A DNA stretch of 64,000 nt from assembly GCA_944363505.1 (NCBI GenBank), contig CALVUD010000007.1, positions 26,122 to 90,121 of the forward strand, read 5' to 3'. Source of the DNA: an uncultured Clostridia bacterium. GTDB lineage: Bacteria > Bacillota > Clostridia > Christensenellales > DTU072. Below the pieces are notes generated by a model, which saw only the letters and a list, made by a program, of their open reading frames with translations, did not search any database and was not told the origin of the DNA. The translations under genes were made by a program, and so were the position numbers. Below are positions 2,072 to 50,900 of the stretch, in pieces (the first letter of the stretch is position 1; each line of letters begins with the position of its first letter).

Positions 2072-3000
2072 GCTCTCTTTCCTGCCTCTTCTATGAATTT
2101 TTTGAGATTTTTATATTGCAAAACGAAAACGTCTTTTCTGGTAACCTTAGTGGTCTTGGTGTTGCCGAGTTTTTCGTCTATGTAGCAGAACGCTTTATAA
2201 AAATCCGGAACGATAAAGCGCGCGAACGGCACGAAATAAACGTATTTTCTGCCAACGGCATATTTTGCGGTGTGCGGCTCGAGCGTCATGAACCCCTCGT
2301 AACCCCTGGCTTCGAGATCGTCGAAAATCTTTTTGTAGTCGGTCTCGCCGAGTCCCATGGGAACTTCTACCCTTGTGGCTTTGTCGCAGTCCTTGATATG
2401 GTAATACACCACGCTGTCTTTCAGCTTTTCGTAAGCTTCGTTGGGGTTTTCGCCGACTTGAATAAAGTTGGACGCGTCGTAAGCGAGTCTGAATTTCGGA
2501 CTGTTCACGGCGTCGTATATTTCGACTACCCTGTCGGCGACGTCGCCGTAAATGCCTTTTTCGTTCTCGTGCAGCAATACCACGTCCGTACCCTCGACGC
2601 ATTCGACGAACTTTTTGAGCTTTTCGACGACAGTGTCGCGGTATTTGGAGTAATCGGCGCCCTTAGGAATGAAAAAACTGAAAATGCGGATATATTTACA
2701 GTTCATCATCGCCGCTATACCGACAAGTTCTTTCAGCTGCGTGAGCTGACGGTTGAAGCCTTCCTCGTCGTTGACGTTGACCTTTCCTATCGGCGACCCG
2801 ATAGAGCTGAAGCCTATTCCCGCGGCGTCAAGGCGCGGTTTTATCTTTGCGGCGAATTCTTCCGCCGTGTAATCGGCAATGTTCTTGCCGTCTATGCGTC
2901 TGGGGCAAATATACTTTTCGCCCAGTTCCCTTACCAGGGCTATCTGTTCATCCAGGTTGGAGCTTACCTCGTCGTAAAACCCGGAAATAGAAACTTTCAT
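2068..3000 (-). CDS. sugar phosphate isomerase/epimerase (xylose-isomerase-like TIM barrel)
   Basis: 310-aa ORF with SD GGGAGGA just upstream of ATG 3000. The overall sequence pattern fits the AP-endonuclease-2/xylose-isomerase-like TIM-barrel family by recognition only. Translationally coupled to the downstream oxidoreductase. Confidence 0.7.
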   Translation of the reverse strand: MKVSISGFYDEVSSNLDEQIALVRELGEKYICPRRIDGKNIADYTAEEFAAKIKPRLDAAGIGFSSIGSPIGKVNVNDEEGFNRQLTQLKELVGIAAMMNCKYIRIFSFFIPKGADYSKYRDTVVEKLKKFVECVEGTDVVLLHENEKGIYGDVADRVVEIYDAVNSPKFRLAYDASNFIQVGENPNEAYEKLKDSVVYYHIKDCDKATRVEVPMGLGETDYKKIFDDLEARGYEGFMTLEPHTAKYAVGRKYVYFVPFARFIVPDFYKAFCYIDEKLGNTKTTKVTRKDVFVLQYKNLKKFIEEAGKRA

Positions 3001-3060
3001 ACCGTCCTCCCGTTTGTAAAATTTATGAATAAAAGTGCTTATATTATGCGATATAGGGCG

Positions 3061-3909
3061 TTAAACGCCGGAATATGCCGAAAAACCTCCGTCAACGGGC
3101 ACCACGATACCCGTTACGAAACCGCTGAACTCGTCGTCGGAAAGCCACAGGAGTGTTCCCGTCAGTTCGTCCAGCTCGCCGAACCTGCCCATTGGCGTAT
3201 GCGAGATGATCTTGTGCGAACGCGGCGTGAGTTCGCCTTTTTCGTTGTACAGCAGCCCTCTGTTCTGATTACCCACGAAAAATCCGGGCGCGATCGCGTT
3301 GACGCGTATGCCCACTCCGGCAAAATGCACCGCCAGCCACTCGGTAAAATTCGAAACCGCCGCCTTAGCCGCGCTGTAGGCGGGGATCTTTGTCAAAGGT
3401 CTGAACGCGTTCATGCTGCTGATGTTTATTATATTGCCGTAACCTTGTTCCGCCATATCCGCCGAAAACACCTGTGTCGTAAGCAGAATCGACGTGAAAT
3501 TCAGATCGAAAAGCCTCGCGATCGCCTGGCTTTCGAGGTCGAAAAAGCTTTTCAGTCCTTCCGTGGAGGCGTCGCCCTTCTCGTATGTTTCCTTGTCCGT
3601 GGTTGCCTTGGGGTTGTTGCCGCCCGCGCCGTTTATCAGCATGTTGACGGCACCCATATCCGAGCGGATACGCTCGCGACATTCCTCCAGACTCGTCCTG
3701 TTCAGTACGTCCGCACGGTAAGCCCTCGCCTTTCCGCCGGCAGCGACTATCTCGTCGGCGACCTTTTCGGCGCCCTCGAGATTTATGTCTATCAACGCGA
3801 TCTCCGCGCCGACTTTGGCAAGTTCCTTGGCAAACGAGGAACATATGGCGCCAGCGGCGCCGGTAACGGCTATTTTTTTGTCACTTAAATCGATATTGTA
3901 ACGTTGCAT
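3061..3909 (-). CDS. SDR family oxidoreductase, probably the UxuB-type D-mannonate/fructuronate oxidoreductase
   Basis: 282 aa. Cofactor motif VTGAAGAICSS, catalytic YSAAK, and the GAGGNNPKATT block typical of the SDR-type UxuB. Lies 11 nt downstream of uxuA. Confidence 0.7.
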   Translation of the reverse strand: MQRYNIDLSDKKIAVTGAAGAICSSFAKELAKVGAEIALIDINLEGAEKVADEIVAAGGKARAYRADVLNRTSLEECRERIRSDMGAVNMLINGAGGNNPKATTDKETYEKGDASTEGLKSFFDLESQAIARLFDLNFTSILLTTQVFSADMAEQGYGNIINISSMNAFRPLTKIPAYSAAKAAVSNFTEWLAVHFAGVGIRVNAIAPGFFVGNQNRGLLYNEKGELTPRSHKIISHTPMGRFGELDELTGTLLWLSDDEFSGFVTGIVVPVDGGFSAYSGV

Positions 3910-5571: not shown

Positions 5572-6071
5572 TTTATTTCGTTCCCGCCCTTACCCTTGCG
5601 GTATTCGTGTTCGGCGCAATCAAAAAAGTAAACGTCTACGACTCGTTTACCGAAGGTATCAAGGAAGCCGTCGGACTGACAATCAAACTGATTCCGTACC
5701 TCGCGACGGTGTTCATGCTGATGGAACTGATGCGGTCAAGCGGACTTTCCGCATTTATCGGACGCACACTTTCACCAGCGTTTCAGTTGCTTGGGATACC
5801 GAAAGAACTATCTGAATTGATCATCCTACGTCCGCTTACGGGCAGCGGCAGTTTAGCCGTTCTGCAAAACATCTACCTCGAATACGGGGTCGATTCCTAC
5901 ATATCCAGGACGGCTTCGGTCATAATGGGTTCGACGGACACGGTGATGTATATCGCGGCGGTGTATTTTTCGGGAACACGGGAGAGCTCGTCCGGAAAAG
6001 CCGTCGGCATCGCGCTTGCGGCAAGTTTTATCGGGGCAATCTCGGCGGCGCTGATATGCCGAATCATGTAA
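5568..6071 (+). CDS. spmB: spore maturation protein B
   Basis: The start is taken at ATG 5568 (MIYFVPALTL...), which overlaps the spmA stop. The ORF-track start at 5514 would overlap spmA by 58 nt. The protein is a membrane protein with the RPLTGSGS block. Confidence 0.8.
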   Translation: MIYFVPALTLAVFVFGAIKKVNVYDSFTEGIKEAVGLTIKLIPYLATVFMLMELMRSSGLSAFIGRTLSPAFQLLGIPKELSELIILRPLTGSGSLAVLQNIYLEYGVDSYISRTASVIMGSTDTVMYIAAVYFSGTRESSSGKAVGIALAASFIGAISAALICRIM

Positions 6072-6207
6072 GCGTAATCGGATCCGCAAAATTTCCCGCC
6101 TTGTAAAAAAAGAACGACGATGTTTCGCCGCTCTTTTTATTTTTCGGTTTATCGGGTCAATCCGCAATTATTATCTGTGATTCGCGGATCGAATTACGCG
6201 TCCTTAA
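6069..6207. repeat. Direct repeat R, copy 1 (the complete spmB/fba-type intergenic spacer)
   Basis: 6069-6139 is identical (71/71) to 6358-6428, 6156-6169 to 6449-6462 (14/14), and 6184-6207 to 6477-6500 (24/24). The copy is bounded by 16-nt inverted repeats, GCGTAATCGGATCCGC at 6072-6087 and GCGGATCGAATTACGC at 6184-6199 (14/16 complementary). Confidence 0.9.
6105..6138. terminator. Rho-independent terminator hairpin inside R copy 1 (bidirectional A-tract/T-tract)
   Basis: AAAAAAAGAACGACG-ATGTTT-CGCCGCTCTTTTT. On the minus-strand RNA the 9-bp stem is fully paired, including two G-U pairs, and is followed by U7. On the plus strand two positions are A-C mismatches. Confidence 0.7.
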
Positions 6208-6356
6208 TTTATTTTCTTTAATTGGTTTAGAACGATATGGCAGCGGATTGTCGTGGAATTTACGATGCGTTTTGTTTAAACGGCAACGAGCCGTATTTGA
6301 ATACGCGTGGGCGCCGTTTAGGGAAAACGGGCGCAAATAACGCGGCAAGGCGCGGC
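6208..6356. repeat. Element X, copy A (unclassified conserved non-coding element)
   Basis: The core 6239-6356 aligns without gaps to 10362-10479 (118 nt each, 88 identical by hand count). Upstream, 6211-6225 resembles 10328-10343. No conserved ORF. Confidence 0.8.
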
Positions 6357-6357
6357 T

Positions 6358-6500
6358 TAAGCGTAATCGGATCCGCAAAATTTCCCGCCTTGTAAAAAAA
6401 GAACGACGATGTTTCGCCGCTCTTTTTAACTTGTTTGTAACTTGTAGAGTCAATCCGCAATTTTAACTAATTTTGTGCGGATCGAATTACGCGTCCTTAA
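6358..6500. repeat. Direct repeat R, copy 2 (ends on the fba stop codon)
   Basis: See copy 1. Similarity starts at TAAGCG and ends at CCTTAA, which contains the fba stop (6497-6499). Confidence 0.9.
6394..6427 (-). terminator. fba terminator (hairpin inside R copy 2)
   Basis: Same hairpin and U-tract as 6105-6138, about 70 nt downstream of the fba stop on the minus strand. Confidence 0.75.
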
Positions 6501-7426
6501 GCTTTGCCGCCGCAACCCAGGACGTACTGGATCTTGTGTTTAACGACTTCTTTTACGCGTTCGCGCGCGGGTCCCAAGTATTGCCTGGGATCGAAGTGAG
6601 AGGGATTGTCGTGGAAATACTTCCTGACCGTCGCGGTTACCGCCATTCTGAGGTCGGAGTCGATGTTGATCTTGCAAACCGCCATTTCGGCAGCCTTTCT
6701 GAGCATCTCTTCGGGAACGCCCTTGGCGCCGGGCATATTGCCGCCGTAACGGTTAATTTCCTCGGCGAGGTATTGAGGAACGCTGCTTGCTCCGTGCAAA
6801 ACGATCGGGAATCCGGGCAAACGCTTGCCTACTTCTTCCAGAATGTCGAATCTGAGTTTTGCTTCGCCCTTGAATTTGAAAGCGCCGTGGCTGGTGCCTA
6901 TGGCTATCGCGAGCGAATCGACGCCCGTCTTTTCGACGAATTCCTGGACCTGATCGGGATCGGTATAGCTGGAATCCGCGGCGGAAACCTTTACGTCGTC
7001 CTCTACGCCCGCGAGCCTTCCGAGCTCCGCTTCGACGACTACGCCGTGATCGTGAGCGTACTCGACAACGTTTTTGGTAATTTTGATATTATCGGAAAAA
7101 GCGTGCGAGGAAGCGTCTATCATGACGGAAGTAAAGCCTTTGTCCACGCAGTCTTTGCACAGTTCGAACGAATCGCCGTGATCGAGGTGTAAGCAGATCG
7201 GCAGTCCGGAATCGATGACCGCAGCCTCCACCAACTTAGTAAGATACGTGGGATTTGCGTATTTCCTGGCGCCCGAGCTGACCTGAAGGATCAAAGGAGC
7301 TCTTTCTTCTTTGGCAGCTTCCACGATGCCCTGGATGATTTCCATGTTATTGACGTTGAACGCGCCGATGGCGTAACCGCCCGCATACGCTTTTTCAAAC
7401 ATCTCTTTACTGGTTACTAATGGCAT
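6497..7426 (-). CDS. fba: class II fructose-1,6-bisphosphate aldolase
   Basis: 309 aa. Motifs MPLVTSKEMF...GAFNVNN, LHLDHG and VLHGASS. SD GGAGGA upstream. Confidence 0.95.
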   Translation of the reverse strand: MPLVTSKEMFEKAYAGGYAIGAFNVNNMEIIQGIVEAAKEERAPLILQVSSGARKYANPTYLTKLVEAAVIDSGLPICLHLDHGDSFELCKDCVDKGFTSVMIDASSHAFSDNIKITKNVVEYAHDHGVVVEAELGRLAGVEDDVKVSAADSSYTDPDQVQEFVEKTGVDSLAIAIGTSHGAFKFKGEAKLRFDILEEVGKRLPGFPIVLHGASSVPQYLAEEINRYGGNMPGAKGVPEEMLRKAAEMAVCKINIDSDLRMAVTATVRKYFHDNPSHFDPRQYLGPARERVKEVVKHKIQYVLGCGGKA

Positions 7427-7504
7427 ATTTATTCCTCCAATTAGGATTTTTTTATATTATACAACCTTTCCGTGTGAAAGTAAATCGAAAACGGCGATTT
7501 CGGC

Positions 7505-7533
7505 TTGTTAAAATTATCTTAGGGCTGTATAAT
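7505..7533 (+). promoter_or_regulatory. sigma-70-type promoter ending 6 nt before ATG 7540 (candidate leaderless transcript)
   Basis: TTGTTA (7505-7510), 17-nt spacer, TATAAT (7528-7533). There is no SD between the -10 box and the ATG. Confidence 0.55.
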
Positions 7534-7539
7534 TTAAGT

Positions 7540-8301
7540 ATGCTGAAAGACGGCGAAGAAATTTTCGATCTTCAATGCGACGGGCTGAAAATAATCCAAC
7601 ATCCCGACGGTTACGCGTTTACGACTGACGCGGTGCTTCTCGCAAACACAGTACGCGCCGCAAAAGGCGACAGAGTGCTGGAACTGGGCACGGGATCGGG
7701 AGTTATAGCCCTGCTCGTCTCAAAAAAAACGAACGCCGGACATATCGACGCCGTTGAGATCCAACCGCGCCTCGCGGACATGGCAAGGCGTTCGGTGGAG
7801 CTGAACGGTCTTTCGGACAGGATCGACATCATCGAGAGCGACATGAAAGAACTCGGATTATCCGGTAAAAGTTATGACGTCGTATGCACTAATCCGCCTT
7901 ATATGACCTATTCAGGCGACGCCTCGGAAGCCACAGAGAACGAGATATGCAAATCCGAGGTTTCGATCACGGTAGCCGAAGTCGTACATACCGCCGCAAA
8001 AGCATTGAAGTACGGAGGAAAGTTTTACGTCGTTTTAAAATCGGAACGTCTGACCGACCTCATATATAATATGCGGCTGAACCATATAGAGCCGAAAATA
8101 ATAACGCCCGTCCAACCCACGGCTAAAAAAGACGTGGATACCGTTTTGGTTACGGGAATCAAGAACGGCAAAAGCGGCGTAAAAGTCATGCGTCCTTTGG
8201 TTATAACCGAAGCGGACGGCAGCTATACCGAAACTGTTAGGAGAATGTATTTCAATGAGTGCGACCCTGTTCGTGGTGGGAACTCCGATAGGAAATCTTA
8301 A
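7540..8301 (+). CDS. tRNA (adenine-N6)-methyltransferase-like SAM-dependent methyltransferase (YabB/TrmN6 type)
   Basis: SAM motif VLELGTGSG and the NPPY motif (VVCTNPPYM). The start is taken at ATG 7540, because the ORF-track start at 7420 would overlap the divergent fba start. Sits next to rsmI, as yabB does in B. subtilis. Confidence 0.75.
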   Translation: MLKDGEEIFDLQCDGLKIIQHPDGYAFTTDAVLLANTVRAAKGDRVLELGTGSGVIALLVSKKTNAGHIDAVEIQPRLADMARRSVELNGLSDRIDIIESDMKELGLSGKSYDVVCTNPPYMTYSGDASEATENEICKSEVSITVAEVVHTAAKALKYGGKFYVVLKSERLTDLIYNMRLNHIEPKIITPVQPTAKKDVDTVLVTGIKNGKSGVKVMRPLVITEADGSYTETVRRMYFNECDPVRGGNSDRKS

Positions 8302-9070
8302 AGACATCACCTTACGCGCGTTGGAAACGCTGAAAAACGTCGATCTGATCGCGTGCGAAGACACACGCCACACGATGATCCTGTTGAACGCCTACGGCAT
8401 TTCGAAGCCGCTTCTGAGCTGTTACCGCGGCAAAGAAAACGAAAGTGCCGAGAAAATCCTATCGGAACTCAACGCGGGAAAAGACGTGGCGCTGGTCTCA
8501 GACGCCGGCATGCCCGCGGTTTCCGATCCGGGCGCCGTGGTCGTGAACGAATGTATTTCAAAAGGTTTCCGCGTGGAATCCGTACCCGGTCCCAGCGCCG
8601 TAGCTACCGCGTTTTCGGTATCCGGAATATGTAAAACGGGATTCGTATTTTTAGGTTTCCTGCCCGACAAAGCGGGTGAAAGAAAACGTATCATAGAGCG
8701 TATGCCATCGTTTAAAATGCCCGTCGCCGTCTATGTCGCGCCGCACGACATAGACAAGATATTACCGGAACTCAAGGCGCAGGCGGGCATCGGGAGAATA
8801 ACCGTCGTCAAGGAACTGACCAAGATCTACGAAAGCGTCATTCGCATTGACGACGAAATCCCCGACTTCGACCGTCGCGGCGAATTCGTCGTCATAGCGG
8901 AGTCGAAGGAAACCGCATCGACCGATACCGACGCGTTCGAAGCGCTCGAAAAGCTGCTGAAAAACGGCGCCACTCCCTCATCTGCCGCAAAGGAGATCTC
9001 CGCGCTTTACGGCGTAAACAAAAACGCTCTTTACCGCCGCGCCCTCGAGTTTTGTTCCGAAAAGCGATAG
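8255..9070 (+). CDS. rsmI: 16S rRNA (cytidine1402-2'-O)-methyltransferase
   Basis: 271 aa. N-terminus LFVVGTPIGNLKDITLRALETL is typical of RsmI. Overlaps the preceding gene by 47 nt. Confidence 0.9.
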   Translation: MSATLFVVGTPIGNLKDITLRALETLKNVDLIACEDTRHTMILLNAYGISKPLLSCYRGKENESAEKILSELNAGKDVALVSDAGMPAVSDPGAVVVNECISKGFRVESVPGPSAVATAFSVSGICKTGFVFLGFLPDKAGERKRIIERMPSFKMPVAVYVAPHDIDKILPELKAQAGIGRITVVKELTKIYESVIRIDDEIPDFDRRGEFVVIAESKETASTDTDAFEALEKLLKNGATPSSAAKEISALYGVNKNALYRRALEFCSEKR

Positions 9071-9126: not shown

Positions 9127-9333
9127 TCAGTAATCCTTGCGCCCCGTAAGGTAATCCAGGTCTTCGCCGAAATAGTCGGCTATCTTACACAGATTTTCCA
9201 AACCGATCTCTCGCTGGCATAAAATATAGCGCGATAAAGTTTGTTGCGGGATCTTTAACTTTTTTGCAACGGAATTTATGCTTTCGTTTCCTATTGTTTC
9301 TTTTAGCCGTTCAGCAAATTTTTCCACATACAT
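9127..9333 (-). CDS. XRE-family helix-turn-helix transcriptional regulator
   Basis: 68 aa. HTH segment SINSVAKKLKIPQQTLSRYILCQREIGLENLCKIADYF. AT-rich codon usage. Confidence 0.85.
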   Translation of the reverse strand: MYVEKFAERLKETIGNESINSVAKKLKIPQQTLSRYILCQREIGLENLCKIADYFGEDLDYLTGRKDY

Positions 9334-9345
9334 TCTGAAATTATG

Positions 9346-9390
9346 TTACACCAAACGGTGTTTAATTCTTGACATTACACCAAACGGTGT
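9346..9390. promoter_or_regulatory. Twin palindromic operators in the divergent XRE/DUF4352 control region
   Basis: TTACACCAAACGGTGT occurs twice (9346-9361 and 9375-9390), each with the dyad ACACC-N4-GGTGT, 29 bp apart. TTGACA lies at 9369-9374 and an extended -10, TGgTATAAT, at 9399-9407. On the minus strand CATAAT lies 6 nt before the XRE ATG. Confidence 0.7.
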
Positions 9391-9427
9391 GATATGCTTG
9401 GTATAATTTATGTGGGGAGGTAAATCC

Positions 9428-10072
9428 GTGTCAACCGATATCGAAGAATTCACTACAAACGAAACAGCCGTAAACACTTCAAGCTCAACAAATCCGAACA
9501 AACAGAATAAAAATTCAAACAAGAAAAATTTTTATAAAAAATGGTGGTTTTGGGTGATAATTGCTGTCGTGGCAGCAATCATAATCGGGGCTGCCGCAGG
9601 AAGCGCGGACGGTAACGGGGGCGACGAAATTCAAGATCATGAAAACGTCAATTCAAGCGAAGCCTGGTACATATGCGATAACGCGACCAACAGTTCTGAT
9701 ATTGTTTTCAAAGTAAATTCCGTGCAAAACACTCAATTTGTCGGAAGCGGCATACTTTCGGAAAGCACCTCAAATAATTTCGCTATTGTAAATATTTCCA
9801 TCAGCAACAATAGCGACAAACCGTTTTCCGCCAACCCGAATAATTTTAATTTAGTATTAAACGGCAAGAAATATAATTATCATAGTGCAACATACTATCT
9901 CGACAACGGAATGTCAAGCCAGGACGATATAAATCCCGGCATTACGAAAACGTACAGAATAGTTTTCGAAGTTCCCACGTCGACCTTAAATGACACCTAC
10001 ACTTTGGTTTGCGGCAACAACTACTCATTGCCGTGGAAGGACATCGAAATACTGCTTAAAGAAAGAAGCTGA
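9428..10072 (+). CDS. DUF4352-like membrane-anchored protein
   Basis: A GTG start at 9428 sits 7 nt after SD GGGGAGG; the ORF-track start is 9410. The protein has an N/K-rich N-terminus, one TM helix (WWFWVIIAVVAAIIIGAAAG) and a C-terminal beta-sandwich-type pattern (FAIVNISISNNSDKPF...INPGITKTYRIVFEVP). AT-rich. Confidence 0.65.
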   Translation: MSTDIEEFTTNETAVNTSSSTNPNKQNKNSNKKNFYKKWWFWVIIAVVAAIIIGAAAGSADGNGGDEIQDHENVNSSEAWYICDNATNSSDIVFKVNSVQNTQFVGSGILSESTSNNFAIVNISISNNSDKPFSANPNNFNLVLNGKKYNYHSATYYLDNGMSSQDDINPGITKTYRIVFEVPTSTLNDTYTLVCGNNYSLPWKDIEILLKERS

Positions 10073-10101
10073 GTCTTTTCTATCATCATTACGATAAAGC
10101 G

Positions 10102-10129
10102 AAAAGTCCGAGAAAAAATCGGACTTTTT
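10102..10129 (+). terminator. Rho-independent terminator of the DUF4352 gene
   Basis: AAAAGTCCGA-GAAAAAA-TCGGACTTTTTC. Confidence 0.75.
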
Positions 10130-10179
10130 CATTGCTCAAGATATAATAAGTTTTTATCTTCAATATAATCTCGCGCGCC
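10102..10179. repeat. Repeat R-B, copy 1 (terminator plus spacer downstream of the DUF4352 gene)
   Basis: Aligns with 10515-10599. Shared blocks are AAAAG(T/C)CCGAGA...TCGGACT, TAATAAGTTTTTA, TCAATA and CTCGCGCGC. Confidence 0.65.
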
Positions 10180-10220
10180 ATGATATGCCCTATCACGCTT
10201 TTGCATTTACAACGCGCTAT

Positions 10221-10310
10221 GGCAGCAATTCGGAACAGATTTTTCGGAACGATCGGACGAAACGGCGAGGAAAGCGTACGAACGTACTCGACCGAGCCGC
10301 CGCTTTAAGG
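10221..10310. repeat. Element X, degenerate unit B1
   Basis: Shares TATGGCAGC.ATT.GGAA, AAACGGCG and CCGAGCCG, in the same order as copies A and B2. The rest has diverged. Confidence 0.5.
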
Positions 10311-10324
10311 TACGATAAAAGTCA

Positions 10325-10479
10325 ATATATTTCGTTTAATTAGCTGATTCAGGAGTGCTTAGGCAGCGGATTGCCTCGGAATTTCAGAAATGTTTGCTTA
10401 AAACGGCGCCGAGCCGTATCGACATACGCGACGGCGGCGTTTTACGGAAACAGGCTGAAATAACGGGGTAAGGCGCGAC
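10325..10479. repeat. Element X, copy B2
   Basis: The core 10362-10479 matches 6239-6356 at 88/118 positions without gaps (hand count). Confidence 0.8.
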
Positions 10480-10514
10480 GAAGATATTTCGCGCGCTTCG
10501 ATTCTATCCTTATG

Positions 10515-10546
10515 AAAAAAGCCCGAGAGAAGCTCTCGGACTATTT
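10515..10546 (-). terminator. ilvE terminator
   Basis: The minus-strand RNA is GUCCGAGAG-CUUC-UCUCGGGC followed by U6. Confidence 0.75.
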
Positions 10547-10599
10547 CTTAACTATGGTTTTAATAAGTTTTTAACCTCAATAAATATTTCTCGCGCGCG
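10515..10599. repeat. Repeat R-B, copy 2 (terminator plus spacer downstream of ilvE)
   Basis: See 10102-10179. It ends in the near-palindrome ATATTTCTCGCGCGCGAAATAT (10584-10605), next to the ilvE stop. Confidence 0.65.
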
Positions 10600-10609
10600 A
10601 AATATCAAT

Positions 10610-22326: not shown

Positions 22327-22342
22327 TTAAAATTCAACGGTT

Positions 22343-22376
22343 AAAAAAAGTCCGAGATTTTTCTCGGACTTTTTTA
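22343..22376 (+). terminator. gap terminator
   Basis: AAAAAAAGTCCGAGA-TTTT-TCTCGGACTTTTTT. Confidence 0.8.
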
Positions 22377-22505
22377 ATACCCTTTTTTCGATATACTTTT
22401 CAGACGCCGTTTCAAAATCGCCTGCGCTCCGATAAAGCTTTATCCGATAATCCATATTAAAAGCTTCTTTTACGGCATTAGGCGGTCGACCGTTTCGCTT
22501 ACCGC

Positions 22506-23594: not shown

Positions 23595-23716
23595 CGCTTA
23601 CATATCGGTTAGTTAGACCTGTCAGGAAATCTTTCACGATTTAATTATATGTCGCGATCCGAGATGTGTCAACACCCTTTCTTCGCCTACGCCTACCGCC
23701 TACCCCGTTTTCCGAT

Positions 23717-23750
23717 AAAAAATATCCGACTTTCGGTCGGATATTTTTTA
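23717..23750 (-). terminator. gpmI terminator (bidirectional form)
   Basis: AAAAATATCCGAC-TTTCG-GTCGGATATTTTTT, about 20 nt downstream of the gpmI stop. Confidence 0.8.
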
Positions 23751-23768
23751 TCGGAAATTGTTCAGATT

Positions 23769-44914: not shown

Positions 44915-47900
44915 TCATACCCCCACTATTTTGTCGAGGCTTTCGGGCCACAGCTCGCGATACTTTTCTATAGCCTCGGCGGGGACCCTGATCTCCGATA
45001 CCGAATCGAACACGCCGCTTTCCACCGTTATCGACGACGGATCGGTTGCACTGAACCTTAGCGCGAATCCCTCGGCGGTATTTTCGAACGCGCCCGCTCC
45101 TATCGATACCACGCTTGCGGGTAGCGAAACTTCGGTCAGCGAAACGCAGTCCTTGAACGCGCCGCCCGGTATTTCCGTCAGGGCGGTGCCCGAAAGATTT
45201 ACCGCGGTAATGTTTCCGTTACCCGCGAACGCGTCGGCGGCTATGCCCTTGAAATATCCGGGTAGCGTAACGCTCGCGGAAGAACCGACGTATCTTATCA
45301 GAATACTCGGCGCCGAGGCAAGCACGTATCCCGTAGTAGCCTGAGATATTTCTGCCTCCAGCCACGCCGTACCGTCGAACGCGCCCGCGCCTATACGCTT
45401 GACGGTCGAAGGAATGGTAACGGCGGAAACGTTGCTCCATCCCTTTATGAATCCGTCGGCTATGACGTCGGCTGCCGCCAAAGCGATTATCTGAACGCTC
45501 TTTATGTTTTCGAGAACCCCGCCGGTCATGTCCGATATCGGCGTGTCGCCGTAAACGGTCAGCGAAGTAATTAAGGGATCGGAGAGCATGTCGCTGAGTT
45601 CCGCGGGGGAAACGAGCGGCGCTTTCGGTAGCGCTATGCCCGTGATCTTGCCGGAACCCGTCATCCCTTCCAGAGCGCCCTCGACTATCGATTTCACGTT
45701 GTCGGGTAAGTTCCACGTGCCGTCGAACGGCGTCACTTTCTTATAGAAAATATATCCTGCCGTTTCGTTTCCGAAAGTCACGTCCTGCGACGCGGAATTC
45801 AGCCACGCCGTACCGTCGAACGCGCCCGCGCCTATATTCGTAAGATTGCTTAAAGTTCTGAGCCTCGATCCGACCGTGGTCAGGTTCAGACAGTCTTTGA
45901 AAGCGTTTTCGCCTATCGAATTCAGCAAACTGCCCTCCTCGACTTCCACCTGAGTCAGGAAGGTGTTTCCTTCGAACGCGCCCGCCGCGATAGTTCTGAC
46001 GTCGAAAGGCACTACGTATGACGACGCTTCTCCGGTATACCTTATCAAGATCTTGCCGCCGACGGAAGAGTTTAGTATCAGCGCGCCGTCGGTTGCGGTG
46101 ATCTGAGTGCCTTCAAACGCAGTTTCGGCTACATATGTTACGCTTTCGGGTAGCGAAACGCTGCTGAGATACTGGCAATACGCGAAAGCGTAATCGAGGA
46201 TCGATTCCGCCCTGCTGCCCGCCTCGAAACGTATCTGCGTTACGGAAAGTCCCATCGAAGAATACTTGTAATCCCCGTTGTCGATCGTCGCGTTCGCAAA
46301 CGCCGCGGTGTTGACGACTATCGCGTCCGCAGGGATGACCACGTCGGTCGAACCGCCCGTACCCGAAGGGTCGTATTTGTAATACAGCACTCCGCCCAGC
46401 ATTATGTTGCTGTTGCCGTAGCGCGTGGACGAATAACTCCGATACCAGACTGTGTTTTCGAGCGAATTGACGCCGACCTTTCTGATACTGGCCGGGAACG
46501 AAACCGAGCTAATGTGATCCCATCCGAGCAACAGTTCGTCTACCGTTTCCACGGTGCCTTCCTCTATCATGACCGAAGTAACCACGCTCATCGCGCCGAG
46601 GTTGCCGTCCAGCAACTCGTTCATCGTAACCGCGCCGTTATATTCGATAACGTGTACGGAATGCACGTCTATAACGCTTCTTAAGGTCGCCGCGGAAAGT
46701 TTGCGCGCGTCGGGAGTAACGTCCAGAACTCTGAGGACGCTGAGCTCGGAAAGGTTACTCAGCGCACTCGCTTCGGCGGTTATGCCGTAACGAAGACCTA
46801 CCGACGTAACCGAACCGGTCAAAACGGCGCCGGACAAGGATTTCACGACGGCGGTCTGAATGTTGCCGCCCGCCGATACTTCCACCTCCGCGGGAATGTC
46901 CACGTCGGTAACTTCGCCGATATACGTGCCGTCCGCGCTCTCGGTATACAGTCTGTACATATACAACACGCCCGAAGTGGAGATCAGATAATGCGCTACG
47001 GTGCGCACGTCGCCCGAAAGCGAGACCTCGGTCTCGTAATCGTAAACGGTGCTGAGCGCGACCACGTTGCCTACGCCCGTTCCCCACGAGGCGTAATTAC
47101 CTGTACCGCTATAGAATATCGTAATGTTATCGACGCCGCCGAGCACGTTGCCGCCCGTAAGCTCGGGTTCCGCGCCCTCTCTGTCGTTAAACAGCAATCT
47201 GATCAGTTTTTCCGCGCCGTTGAAAGCGTCGGAGCTTATCTGAGCCACGCTTGCGGGTATATATACGGTTTCAGCCACGCTGTCGGAGAACGCATAGCCG
47301 TTTATAGATGTAGCGCGCGCGTCTATACGCACCACGGATTCGGCGCTTCTGACCTCTATCAGAGTTCCGCCGATAAATACGAATTCGGAGTCCTGAGCGT
47401 TCATCCAGCCCGTGCCTCTGAACGCCGCGGAGCCTATCGAAACGCCCTCAAGAGCATTTTCGGCTTCGACGGTTTCCAGCGCGTAAACCTCCTGTCCGGA
47501 GCGCACGAAAATACCGTTGACCGAACCTGCGTTTTCGAGGAACGAATCGGGAATTGAGACCGCGTCCGAAATATCTATATATATTGATTTAAGGTTCTGC
47601 GGCAGATCGGCGCCCGAATTCAGTCCGAATACGGCAGCCACGCCGACGGGTGTGTTTATCGTCAGCGAAACGTCTCCCGCCGTCGCCGAAACCAGTCTGT
47701 AAATCAGGTTGTCGGCGCCCGTGCCGCTCCTAAGCGAAGCCTGCGGATCTTCGTTGACGCGACTGTTGACGTTCAGCGTTATTTCGGTTGCAAAAGTCAG
47801 TCCTCCGAACGGGTTATCGCCTATCGGGACCAAAGCAGTATCGACTTCTATCGCCGTACTCGAACGGGTGAACGCGTAATCGCCTATTCTGTCTACCGCA

Positions 47901-50900
47901 GTTCCCGATATGGTCGCGGGCGTAATAACCGCGCCGCTTTCCTCGGGCACGGACATATATTTCAACAACGCGATCGCGTTACTGTAATACGCGTAAACCC
48001 AGCCGCTCGCCTCGTCGTAACCGACGTTGCTGACCGCGATAGGCGATTTTACTCCCGATACGGACGATTCGGCGTACAGACTGAATTCTCCCGAATCGTT
48101 CAGCGTGCCCGTAAGCGCGTTTTCGGGAACGGTCGCGGACCCCGCGACGACGAGTACCGCGAATTTCGAAGAATTCATAAACGCGTATTCGCCTATTTCC
48201 GCGCCGGAGCCGGTAAGATATACGCTTTCCAGATTCACGGCGTTCGCAAACGCATATTCGCCTATGGTCTTTACGCCTTCGGGCAAAACGACCTGTCTGA
48301 CGGACGAATTATATTCAAAAGCGTTCGGGGAAACCGCAATGGCGTTTTCGGGAACCCATACTACGGACGCGGTACCGGTATACGAATACAGAATGCCTGC
48401 GCCGAGCATCGTGAATCCGTCGGAATCGACGTATGCGTCGACCCACGGAACGCCGTCGAACGCGCCGTTGCCTATCGTCTGTACCGCGCCGGGTATACCG
48501 TCGGTATAATCGTCACCGTCATAAGTCAGCACCGTAGACAGCGATATATCGCCCGAAAAAGCCGAAGTCTCGATGGAATTCAGATATGTAAGCGAATCGA
48601 AATACAATTCTCTTAACGCAGTCATTCCGGCAAACGCCTCTACGCCCAGCGATTCCACGTACTCGCCGACGTGCACGCGCGTTATGAACGTCTGATCCGC
48701 GAACATATAGTCGGGCAGTCCGAACGAGGAAGTACCGTAAACTTCGACCTCGGTTATCTTGGAGGGAAGCTGTCCGCCGAAAATGCCCGAAGCGGTAACG
48801 TTGGGGTTTACCAGCGTAAGTTTGTAAAGGCTGTCGGAGGTAACGTATGCCTGCGTCAAAGCCGCACCCGACACCGTATATCCCGAATACAGATCGCGCA
48901 CTATCGTCAGGTTTTCGAGTATGGATGCGGAATAGAACGTATCCGCTTCAATACTGAGCGTGCTGCCGAATTCGACGCTGTAAATAATGGACGAGAACAC
49001 GTTGGAGCCCAGTCCCACGACCGTATAGGTCTTGCCCGCTTCGCTTGCGGGCGTACCGCTTTGGGTCATGACCGTAACGGTATTCGGAACTTCCACGTCG
49101 AAAAAGTAACCGGTTCTTTCGTCGCCCAGATACTGTAAAAGAATCACGGAGTCGCTCATCGACGAATCGATCGCGTAGGACCAGATACCGCCGTCGGGAG
49201 CGATTGCCATGCTGTATTTCGAAACGAGTTTGTCGCTTAACGCCGTCCAATTTGTACCGCCGGCGACATAGCGCGAAACCTCGGGCACGTATATGCGGAA
49301 GTTCAGGTAGGACAGCCCAGAGTTGTAGAACACTTCCGTACCCAGCACCGCGGGTTCGGAGCGGTCGAATACCGCGTACATCAGCTCGCTCGCTTCAAAG
49401 AACGCCCTGTCTCCCAGTCTTTGCAGGGAAGCGGGCAGGAACACGCGCCTCAGCGACAATGCGCCCATAAACGCGCCCTCTCGGATTTCCGTAAGCGACG
49501 ACGGGAAAGAAACGTCGTCGGTCGCCGTTACGGAGCCTGCGGCGTCCACGACGTACAGATCGTTCAGCTTCAACGACAAGCAGCCCGAGAAAGCGTAACT
49601 GCCTATCACCGACAGCTCGGCGCCCTCGCGGAACCTGACGGTCTCAAGCATCTCGCAGTCGCGGAAGCAGTTGTCGGGTATCGTGCCAACGCGCTGAGGT
49701 ATGGTTATTTCGGTAAGCGCTGTATTTTCGAAAGCGCCGGGCCCGAACGAAATTATCGTATCGGGGAGCGTTACGGACACGATCGCGGTATCCGCGAACG
49801 CTTCCGTTCCTATCTGAGTTACGGGCACGCCCATATAGTAGTTTGCCACCGTAACTTCCGTTGCCGTACCCGTGTAACCGGCTACGTATGCTTCCGTTCT
49901 GTTTTCGTTCAGCGCGTACTCGACGCCCTCCGTTCCCTCGGCTACGGCTTCCCATGCCGCGTACAATACCAAATCTGAGGTAACGGGCGTCGAAAAATCG
50001 TAACGGGTTACGAACGCGGGATCGACGTACCAGTCAAGGAACACCATATTCTCCCACGCCGCCGAAGGCGCAGCGACGGCGGAATTGTGTACCACCGTTA
50101 CGGGGTCGATTACGTAACCGTCGATGTTCGTAACGAACGATACGGTATATCTCGTGGCTTCCGTTACCGCATAGAAAGTCGTATCGCCGCTAAGCACATA
50201 AAATACGCCTGCGGGTTTCAACGCGCCCGAGCCTTCGCCGACAAGCACATATTGACCGGAGGAATTGACCGTGTACCAGCCGTTATCCACGAAATACAAC
50301 CTTTCGGCGAAATTCGACCAGGTGCTCGTCCTTATCAGATTGGCGATCTCGCCCGCGTCGCAAGTTACCAGATAGTCCGCTCCTTCGCCGACGACCAGAT
50401 AAGAAGCCGTATAAACGTCCTCGCCGACGCCGCCTGCCTTATACCACTCTCCCGTAGCGGGATCGTAGTAAATGCGCGTACCTTGAGCGTCCTTTCTCCA
50501 GCCCAGGAAATCGACGCCTTCTTCCGTTACCGCGGACACCGATTCGCGATATCCCGCTATGCCGGAAGTGAAGCCTATCACCGTTCCGTAATCGTAATTT
50601 ACGGGAAGACTGAGCGAATTGCCCTCGAAATCGTACTGGGGATATTCGATATTGCCTTCTCCTATGAATTTAAGAGTGTACGAATTGATCGTGAATACGG
50701 GCACGAACGACATATCCGAAACGACGTCGGTGGCGCTGGCGCCGTCGGGAATCGCCCTGAAACCCGTAAAGGTATAGCCTTGGCGTTCGGGAGACGCCAC
50801 GTCCTGAGGCAGTCTGACGGAGTCGTGGAAATCCGCCTCGGTCGAATAAAGCGGAACGGTCGCCTGTTCGTCGGCATACCAGGTCACGGTAAAGCGATTG

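Follow-up and report, generated by a model that had tools for sequence, protein, structure and literature searches.

The 64,000-nucleotide stretch of DNA analysed here (the window), from a chicken-gut Clostridia metagenome-assembled genome, carries at two junctions between convergent genes a 118-nt element, here called X, that is a single long, imperfect, rod-like hairpin of about 41 base pairs. X is non-coding and its pairing is kept by compensatory change as its sequence diverges between lineages, and the terminators on either side of it are two copies of one module, R, of around 130–140 nt; each locus is an array of the form R-(leader-X-R)n in which X is the variable unit. We propose that X is a functional module of structured RNA, specific to its lineage, that is read from the plus strand and acts in cis within a recombining hairpin–terminator array, a reading to which we assign a probability of about 0.5; with a trans-acting small RNA counted in, an RNA role of one kind or the other becomes fairly likely. 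If transcribed, X would represent a new structured RNA family in a clade of uncultured chicken-gut Clostridia near 'Candidatus Stercoripulliclostridium', with an unusual anatomy in which a rod-like hairpin alternates with duplicated two-way terminators. Its distribution is narrow, its function is putative and no new mechanism of broad reach is involved; its value lies in four lineages and dozens of strains, with zero, one or two units, in which compensation appears to preserve structure under neutral drift, and in what the arrays record of how such repeats grow, shrink and mark rearrangement junctions.

The two intact copies lie on the plus strand at 6,239–6,356 (copy A; locus A, between spmB and fba) and 10,362–10,479 (copy B2; locus B, beside ilvE). 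They align without a gap over 118 nt with 88 identical positions, exactly the count given in an earlier description made from the letters of this DNA alone (the sequence-only reading); a repeat finder returned them as a pair of 116 nt at 75% identity, and blastn inside the window aligned them with E = 1.6e-17. As that reading also held, and as alignment bears out, the similarity reaches upstream into an AT-rich leader of about 30–45 nt: positions 6,211–6,225 (ATTTTCTTTAATTGG) match 10,328–10,343 (TATTTCGTTTAATTAG), and the leader of copy A (6,208–6,238, plus strand) aligns to 10,326–10,361 within the leader of B2 (10,318–10,361, plus strand; AATATATTTCGTTTAATTAGCTGATTCAGGAGTGCTTA). The copy A leader, which exists among strains as two very different alleles, ends in the purine-rich TTTAGAACGATAT, AGGAG-like in other alleles and lineages. 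A third, degenerate unit had been described at 10,221–10,310; this similarity is real but weak (local alignment z = 3.1 against copy A and 5.3 against B2) and belongs to B1 (10,180–10,317, plus strand), a genuine relative truncated at its 3′ end. Roughly 32 nt are missing from the 3′ arm of B1, which has no significant fold (z = +1.3), can no longer make the hairpin and is not recovered by a covariance model of X; it is 91–98% conserved among strains and duplicated in two of them (L001 and L009). With filters off, the same model picks out A (134.7 bits) and B2 (122.2 bits) as the sole intact copies in the 64-kb window, its weaker reverse-strand 'ghost' matches arising because the X sequence is quasi-palindromic. 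No further copies are present in the 10 kb past either window end, about 84 kb being covered in all.

Two short adjacent hairpins had been suggested from the letters. One of them survives as the apical stem, GTAT/ATAC, closing on TTGA in copy A and on CGAC in B2; the other does not form as described, ACGGC pairing with a GCCGT about 30 nt further on and not with the adjacent one. The whole is a single rod. On the plus strand, copy A folds at −55 kcal/mol (z = −3.9) and B2 at −61.2 kcal/mol (z = −5.8), compared with −37.4 and −43.4 kcal/mol on the minus strand, and in all 22 distinct X copies folded the plus strand is the more stable by 7–21 kcal/mol. At either locus, the upstream gene has the plus strand of the window as its sense strand. 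Within the consensus structure, G–U pairs occur at 11 pair positions and A–C mismatches at 4, a bias in favour of the plus strand that is suggestive alone (one-sided binomial, around 0.06) and consistent across lineages. The best conserved portion is the base of the rod, with invariant 5′-GGCAGCRGAU.. and ..GCGG-3′ segments, an invariant bulged A and a GA within an internal loop; the hairpin measures 116–156 nt overall. X is not itself an intrinsic terminator: it is followed by TTAAGCGTAATCGG in copy A and GAAGATATTTCG in copy B2, with no U tract.

Comparison with about 50 related contigs, gathered by look-ups with the flanking proteins, reveals that the pairing is maintained. The window and L002 lineages supply 11 distinct copies, in which standard pairs fill 97.8% of pair cells, compared with 36–55% when the pairing partner is slid by one to three columns in the same copies, and six pairs have changed on both sides (zero or one in the slid controls). 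In a wider RNAalifold alignment of 14 sequences (three lineages and L031), 18 of 38 consensus pairs carry changes on both sides, and the more diverged copies, some of them branched, still fold as rods (z from −2.1 to −6.6). Compensatory changes, of which the sequence-only reading had seen none, are thus present in these alignments of related copies. The sequence itself appears to drift at a roughly neutral, synonymous rate: between the window and P0008 lineages, copy A and its orthologue X′ are 62–64% identical, close to the third codon positions of fba (62%) and to R (64%). Between copies A and B2, 16 of 82 paired and 13 of 35 unpaired positions differ. We suggest that it is most likely the shape of X that is under selection, not its sequence, plus a few unpaired purines at the base; the loss of the fold in B1 along with its 3′ arm was counted on the same side, for structure and not sequence being kept.

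The pattern of change leaves little room for a coding function. A 52-codon open reading frame (ORF; 6,237–6,395) follows the AGGAG-like motif, which in most copies stands 4–8 nt ahead of the hairpin base. Copy A, B1 and the P0008 and P0007 lineages have an ATG or GTG at the base or shortly before it, and copy A and the P0008 lineage keep the frame open. The same frame holds one to three stops in B2, L031, L033, L034, L032 and L039, the ATG at 6,237 is TAG in B2 as had been pointed out from the letters, the length of the ORF ranges from 7 to more than 80 codons, and a search of 5.8 billion proteins returned no homologue. Each frame of X is interrupted by stops in some copies, so that a small protein is effectively refuted and the chance of one negligible; the earlier conclusion that X is non-coding stands, none of its frames being open in all family members and B1 carrying a 4-nt insertion or deletion in one strain.

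X also matches no catalogued family. Rfam 15 gave no hits in the window at the gathering threshold, and at E ≤ 10 nothing on X between 5,900 and 10,800 and nothing on the X variants in L031, L033, L039 and L042, in agreement with the earlier impression that no Rfam-type family is recognisable. Plasmid and phage collections contain no match to X. An exact-pattern scan of genome contigs with ATACGCGNNGGCGNCGTTTNNNGNAAAC produced one match, in Tateyamaria, which we set aside as chance since the model search does not support it; two pattern scans each of metagenome and viral contigs gave no hits, the X-bearing lineages being evidently absent from these collections. Readings of X as an attC site, a retron, 6S RNA, SRP RNA or a k-turn were tried, and none fits its anatomy or the tests.

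The flanks of X are as structured as X itself. The sequence-only reading had placed X between terminators at two convergent junctions, which is correct, and had assigned one terminator to the plus-strand gene and the other to the minus-strand gene, which is not: both are copies of R, a bidirectional intrinsic terminator set inside a long-range inverted repeat with arms of 14–23 nt. At locus A the entire spacer bounded by the stop codons of spmB and fba is present twice (6,069–6,207 and 6,358–6,500), with 71 nt 100% identical and a further 59 nt at 78%. The first copy has its left arm at 6,072–6,087 (GCGTAATCGGATCCGC), the terminator at about 6,105–6,144 and the right arm at 6,184–6,199 (GCGGATCGAATTACGC); the second has arms at 6,361–6,380 and 6,473–6,492, the terminator at about 6,394–6,430, and ends on the fba stop codon (6,497–6,499). 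At locus B the first copy (10,073–10,179) has its terminator at 10,101–10,130, followed by an AT-rich stretch to CTCGCGCGCC, and is without a left arm; the second (10,480–10,609), with a bidirectional terminator at 10,516–10,552, abuts the ilvE stop codon (10,610) and is closed by a perfect 14-nt inverted repeat (10,483–10,496, GATATTTCGCGCGC; 10,593–10,606, GCGCGCGAAATATC). The segments 10,102–10,178 and 10,517–10,598 are 73% identical. The R modules of the two loci are at best weakly alike (z around 3.6–4.3) and may be homologous. The array period is 289–293 nt, and the next terminator lies 42–47 nt downstream of the end of X in every lineage.

R is asymmetric in the direction opposite to X. 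With its ends paired, the first R of locus A folds at −48.7 kcal/mol on the minus strand and −39.3 kcal/mol on the plus strand, and the second R of locus B at −46.5 and −39.7 kcal/mol; the better-folding minus strand is the strand of fba and ilvE, and the terminator is the weaker on the plus strand. A terminator scan flags the R modules only, not X, with hits on both strands at the second R of locus B. Terminators enclosed by long-range inverted repeats occur in the whole window at these two loci only, and another convergent junction (22,327–22,505) has a plain terminator and no X. We also considered R as a dispersed MITE (a miniature transposable element with inverted repeats) and rejected this, repeat-enclosed terminators being confined to the two loci and a similar feature at 22,344–22,375 being a plain hairpin.

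R is notable in its own right as a bidirectional terminator closed by a co-varying 14–23 nt repeat that overlaps the convergent stop codon. Between lineages the two arms change together: at locus A they are of the GCGTAATTCGATCCGC type in the window lineage, GGCGTAATTGTATGCGCA / TGCGCATACAATTACGCC in P0008 and TTTATCCGC / GCGGATAAA in L002, and at locus B they read AATAATTTTCTTCCCGAA / TTCGGGAAGAAAATTATT in P0007 and TTGATCGATTGCCGAA / TTCGGCAATCGATCA in L039 and are perfect over 23 nt in L024. The right arm extends over the convergent gene's stop codon, in some cases over its last codons as well. Within R of locus A, a small hairpin (6,163–6,189 and 6,454–6,482) keeps its ATCCGC/GCGGAT stem around a hypervariable loop of about 18 nt, which exists in at least three unalignable versions shuffled among R copies and strains (L001–L010).

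X occurs in four lineages and is confined in all of them to the same two syntenic places, the spmB–fba space and the ilvE locus. Members of the fba protein cluster carry the names 'Clostridia bacterium' and 'Candidatus Stercoripulliclostridium'. Most strains of the window lineage have one unit at locus A, with two in L006 and L010, and the R copies there combine a few allelic types, a mosaic pattern that points to gene conversion. Locus B of this lineage takes the forms B1-B2, B1-(truncated B2)-B1-B2, B1 alone, or B2 with its interior deleted and 50 nt left (L006); one copy at locus A of L006 carries a 22-nt internal duplication. The L002 relative has a single R and no X at locus A and an intact B2 at locus B. 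The P0008 lineage has zero, one or two units at locus A, with copy X′, and a diverged X at locus B in L039. The P0007 lineage has a plain terminator at locus A, with neither R nor X, and diverged X copies at locus B, of which some carry an additional branch hairpin. Wherever a strain shows both loci, at least one intact copy is retained, and either locus may lose its own; where a Flg_new/PKD island separates rsmI from ilvE, no intact X was detected at locus B. Copies A and B2 are 75% identical in the window lineage, closer than orthologues are (52–62%), and the apical domains of both copies in the P0008 lineage have lineage-specific features in common; together these indicate that the two loci exchange sequence.

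X is absent from sister species with another gene order, in which spmB faces rsmI and fba faces rho, and its arrays are located at the two junctions created by rearrangement of the block comprising fba, a methyltransferase gene (MTase) and rsmI (window 6,497–9,070, compared with L012–L023). The position of the arrays may reflect a causal link with the rearrangement. On a functionless account, X would be a quasi-palindrome left by the rearrangement or by tandem duplication of the terminator spacer, with template switching correcting the arms and recombination shuffling the copies. In its favour, X lies exactly at the two novel junctions of the block, its copy number and its internal deletions and duplications vary freely by strain, its sequence drifts at a neutral rate, and the correction of quasi-palindromes through template switching is a well-established kind of mutation. 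Such an account is nevertheless unlikely. Homologous X copies at two loci argue that X was not made from local sequence; the structure outlasts the divergence at which neutral stems should decay, as that of B1 did; template switching produces Watson–Crick pairs and leaves unexplained both the bias of G–U over A–C and the plus-strand advantage in 22 copies; and each genome with both loci visible keeps at least one intact copy.

Hairpins of this shape also invite a reading at the level of DNA, as a non-autonomous mobile hairpin, either of the MITE or ERIC kind or recognised as a single strand by a transposase or recombinase, or as a recombination site whose insertion duplicated the whole repeat-bounded terminator. 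X has the size and the long-hairpin shape of bacterial MITEs such as ERIC (about 127 bp; PMC3184786). It is flanked by direct repeats (R) whose limits are the inverted-repeat arms of R, stands at both junctions of the rearranged three-gene block and beside a variable gene island, and has lineage-specific features common to both loci. Against this, X occupies the same two syntenic places in four lineages that differ at about 38% of third codon positions, with no new insertion site seen, no more copies in about 84 kb and none in the sister species. Gene tables of the neighbourhood list no transposase, integrase or reverse transcriptase beside X, and plasmids, phages and viral contigs are without a match. 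Candidate target-site duplications (TTAA in the window, CTAG in L040) were rejected, other alleles being without a counterpart: the TTAA that flanks leader and X is part of R, is TGAA or AGAA elsewhere and has no counterpart in most P0008 alleles. By GC skew the plus strand is the lagging strand and the foldable strand is C-rich, so that the foldable strand is not the one exposed as lagging-strand template, which single-strand transposons use; from the biology of IS200/IS605 and attC this counts mildly against a hairpin for single-stranded DNA transposition. We regard a DNA-level element as rather unlikely. GC skew is negative across the whole window, which ruled out a replication origin or terminus near the arrays.

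Set against known hairpin-forming, MITE-like repeats of bacteria with a long stem-loop (ERIC, Correia and RUP; PMC3184786), X is alike in being about 100–150 nt, non-coding and an imperfect palindrome over nearly its whole length that would fold as RNA into a long stem-loop, in lying at gene 3′ ends and in its plausible effect on transcript stability or processing. It differs in having two syntenic loci only, with none dispersed in about 84 kb, in being flanked by terminator-module copies of about 140 nt in place of a TA or other target duplication, and in its asymmetry, with a leader of 30–45 nt on one side only; there is no sequence similarity. By the usual marks of a MITE (PMC3184786), X does not qualify: it is shorter than about 400 bp, encodes no transposase and forms its stem-loop from inverted arms (118 nt, about 41 pairs), but is without a reliable target-site duplication or dispersed copies and keeps its sites unchanged (two loci in about 84 kb, four lineages). 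Modular structured repeats, namely REP/BIME, BOX (boxA-boxB(n)-boxC) and SPRITE of enterobacteria, pseudomonads and pneumococcus, offer a second comparison, and ERIC, BOX and REP elements are thought to act through transcript structure (PMC3184786). Like these, X arrays are mosaics of structured units in strain-variable number, prefer the spaces between convergent genes or gene 3′ ends and are associated with recombination and genome plasticity. REP sequences are 20–40 nt palindromes in hundreds of copies served by RAYT transposases, and BOX modules are dispersed, whereas the units here are of 118 nt and 140 nt, at two loci, with one of the alternating modules a bidirectional terminator; X, with a 118-nt unit, two copies in 64 kb and no transposase-like neighbour, is not a REP or BIME.

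Two further systems share the outline of X. Integron attC or VCR-type repeats are imperfect palindromes of about 60–140 nt, and X is like them in its conserved base, variable apex, strand-specific folding and strain-variable arrays. It differs in that its base reads GGCAGCGGATTG ... CAAGGCGCGGC with no RYYYAAC/GTTRRRY end boxes, there is no integrase nearby (the neighbours are spmB, fba, rsmI and ilvE), the 'cassettes' would be copies of the same terminator spacer and the foldable strand is not the lagging-strand template. The retron msr–msd non-coding RNA is likewise a long hairpin flanked by short inverted repeats, as X is, and X shares with the RT-5 RNA of sister species the kind of place it occupies, directly after the fba terminator; X differs in having no adjacent reverse transcriptase, with no reverse transcriptase (RVT) gene at the window-lineage loci, and no similarity to the Rfam RT-5 RNA or to the element of sister species described next. 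X behaves most like ERIC-, BOX- or BIME-type repeats and tandem small-RNA genes, and is a member of none of them.

In sister species without X (L013, 7,000–8,430; also L014, L015 and L017), an element of about 1.4 kb stands right after the fba terminator. It encodes a 404-aa reverse transcriptase (PF00078) preceded by an RT-5 RNA (53.2 bits), L016 and L018 have the empty site, and it looks like a retron-type insertion at a comparable place.

We favour an RNA over a DNA reading because the strand asymmetry is consistent and the structure is retained over long divergence. On the proposed mechanism, transcription would run from left to right, either leaking through R or starting at a weak or non-sigma-70 promoter in the AT-rich leader; the X RNA would fold into its rod and end at the next R terminator. 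The rod would then act by its structure, as a stable 3′ barrier, as a processing substrate for double-strand-specific or 3′-exonucleolytic RNases or as a platform for protein binding, and probably not through a base-pairing seed. Copy number would shift by unequal homologous recombination between R modules, and copies at both loci would exchange sequence by gene conversion.

Several observations weigh against this mechanism. A complete terminator module precedes X, so that little read-through may reach it. Upstream of X, the plus strand has no conserved sigma-70-type promoter (window, L031 and L042), the tool used being restricted to sites of that type and other sigma factors lying outside its reach. 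The sole good promoter-like site, TTTACA-17-TACAAT (10 of 12 matches), lies in each R of the P0008 lineage, antisense to X. The loops are less conserved than the stems, which also counts against a classical seed-pairing small RNA. Single strains freely lose, truncate or internally delete copies, which implies that selection on any single copy is weak. The strand bias rests partly on related sequences and is marginal at the level of pair positions, and G–T pairs are tolerated in single-stranded DNA hairpins as well. The P0008 site, found in L042 at 6,021–6,049, 6,310–6,338 and 6,599–6,628 (on the plus strand of that locus, which is the minus strand of the window), would set off transcripts from the 3′ edge of X that run antisense to the stable strand; it has no counterpart in the window lineage, where the −10 position reads GATCCG or TCGAAT at the wrong spacing. 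Compared by eye, which is a weak test, neither the leader nor the hairpin base fitted the sigma-54 (one base short in its spacing), sigma-H or sigma-D consensus sequences.

The same evidence bears on the trans-acting alternative, in which the array would hold one or more small-RNA genes, a sibling set with a promoter in R or the leader, a terminator in the next R and action by base-pairing to mRNA. Sibling small-RNA genes arranged in tandem, each supplied with a promoter and a terminator of its own, are known, as in LhrC1-4 of Listeria and OmrA/B. The arrays have much in common with these: terminators insulate X on both sides, with one 42–47 nt downstream in all lineages, structured RNA and terminator form tandem units of constant period (289–293 nt, about 290 nt per repeat) and variable number that evolve in concert, and at least one intact copy persists in each strain with both loci visible. 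The differences lie in what such a gene would need. No recognisable or conserved promoter was found, and no single-stranded stretch is conserved as a seed; unpaired positions diverge faster than paired ones (13 of 35 compared with 16 of 82), the apical loop differs between copies, the sequence as a whole drifts at the synonymous rate and nearly the entire RNA is locked in one closed rod. We therefore think a trans-acting small RNA unlikely. Of the three ideas put forward from the letters, a self-transcribed RNA is favoured by the strand asymmetry and the retained structure, and a mobile element is weakened by the fixed loci and by the lack of a reliable target duplication; X may also be the third, a DNA site that has to stay untranscribed.

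How X came to stand between two copies of R is a separate question. The duplicated segment has its limits at the inverted-repeat arms of R, and in the P0008 lineage it includes a few bases from the 3′ end of fba as well as the stop codon. Either the spacer was duplicated in tandem, with X at the junction, or an insertion duplicated a whole palindromic target; the duplication is compatible with both. A more ambitious idea, which we hold to be quite improbable, is that R-X-R reflects an undescribed way to make or move a structured element: either an insertion that duplicates an entire terminator, a 'target duplication' of about 140 bp with its limits at the base of a cruciform, or a structured RNA gene newly born at the quasi-palindromic junction that arose when a bidirectional terminator was duplicated, with a copy passed later to the other junction of the rearrangement. 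Both versions would make X a young RNA gene, found in a single genus only, with an origin traceable in living strains. A derivation of copy A from fba was also considered and rejected: a 14-nt exact match on the same strand (GGATTGTCGTGGAA, 6,245–6,258 and 6,603–6,616, the latter about 100 nt from the fba stop codon) has no extension, and is probably an allele-specific chance match.

The surroundings of locus B are variable in several ways. From rsmI to locus B and ilvE runs a variable gene island (window 9,127–10,072; L024 9,527–17,035; L042 1–3,294; L041 1–3,302), which by strain contains HTH_3 and DUF4352 genes (the window), nothing, a Flg_new/PKD cluster of surface-protein genes, Rrf2/SnoaL/PNPOx/Macro genes, or PHP and UDP-glucose dehydrogenase genes. 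Locus B of the P0007 lineage carries a GC-rich repeated module, TTAGTTGCGCCCGCCTACCGGACGGTCGCGCC...GCGTGAGCGTCGCTTGACACG (L031, about 2,990–3,270, where it occurs twice; also L032–L034), on which Rfam gave no match, and its leader before X contains tandem sub-repeats of CCAAGCCGGTCGCCGTTATATGGGA.

Three minor observations concern other parts of the data. The representative of the 90% protein cluster that holds fba (P0002) is a 494-aa multi-pass membrane protein unrelated to the aldolase, an apparent clustering artefact. The longest perfect palindrome in the window lies at 23,709–23,757, an AT-rich 22-nt inverted repeat with a 5-nt loop (TTTCCGATAAAAAATATCCGAC / GTCGGATATTTTTTATCGGAAA). On the minus strand at 44,915–53,407, a 2,830-aa ORF, the product of which in L049 carries Flg_new and LRR_5 repeats, encodes a giant surface protein that shares its repeat family with the island genes beside locus B in other strains.

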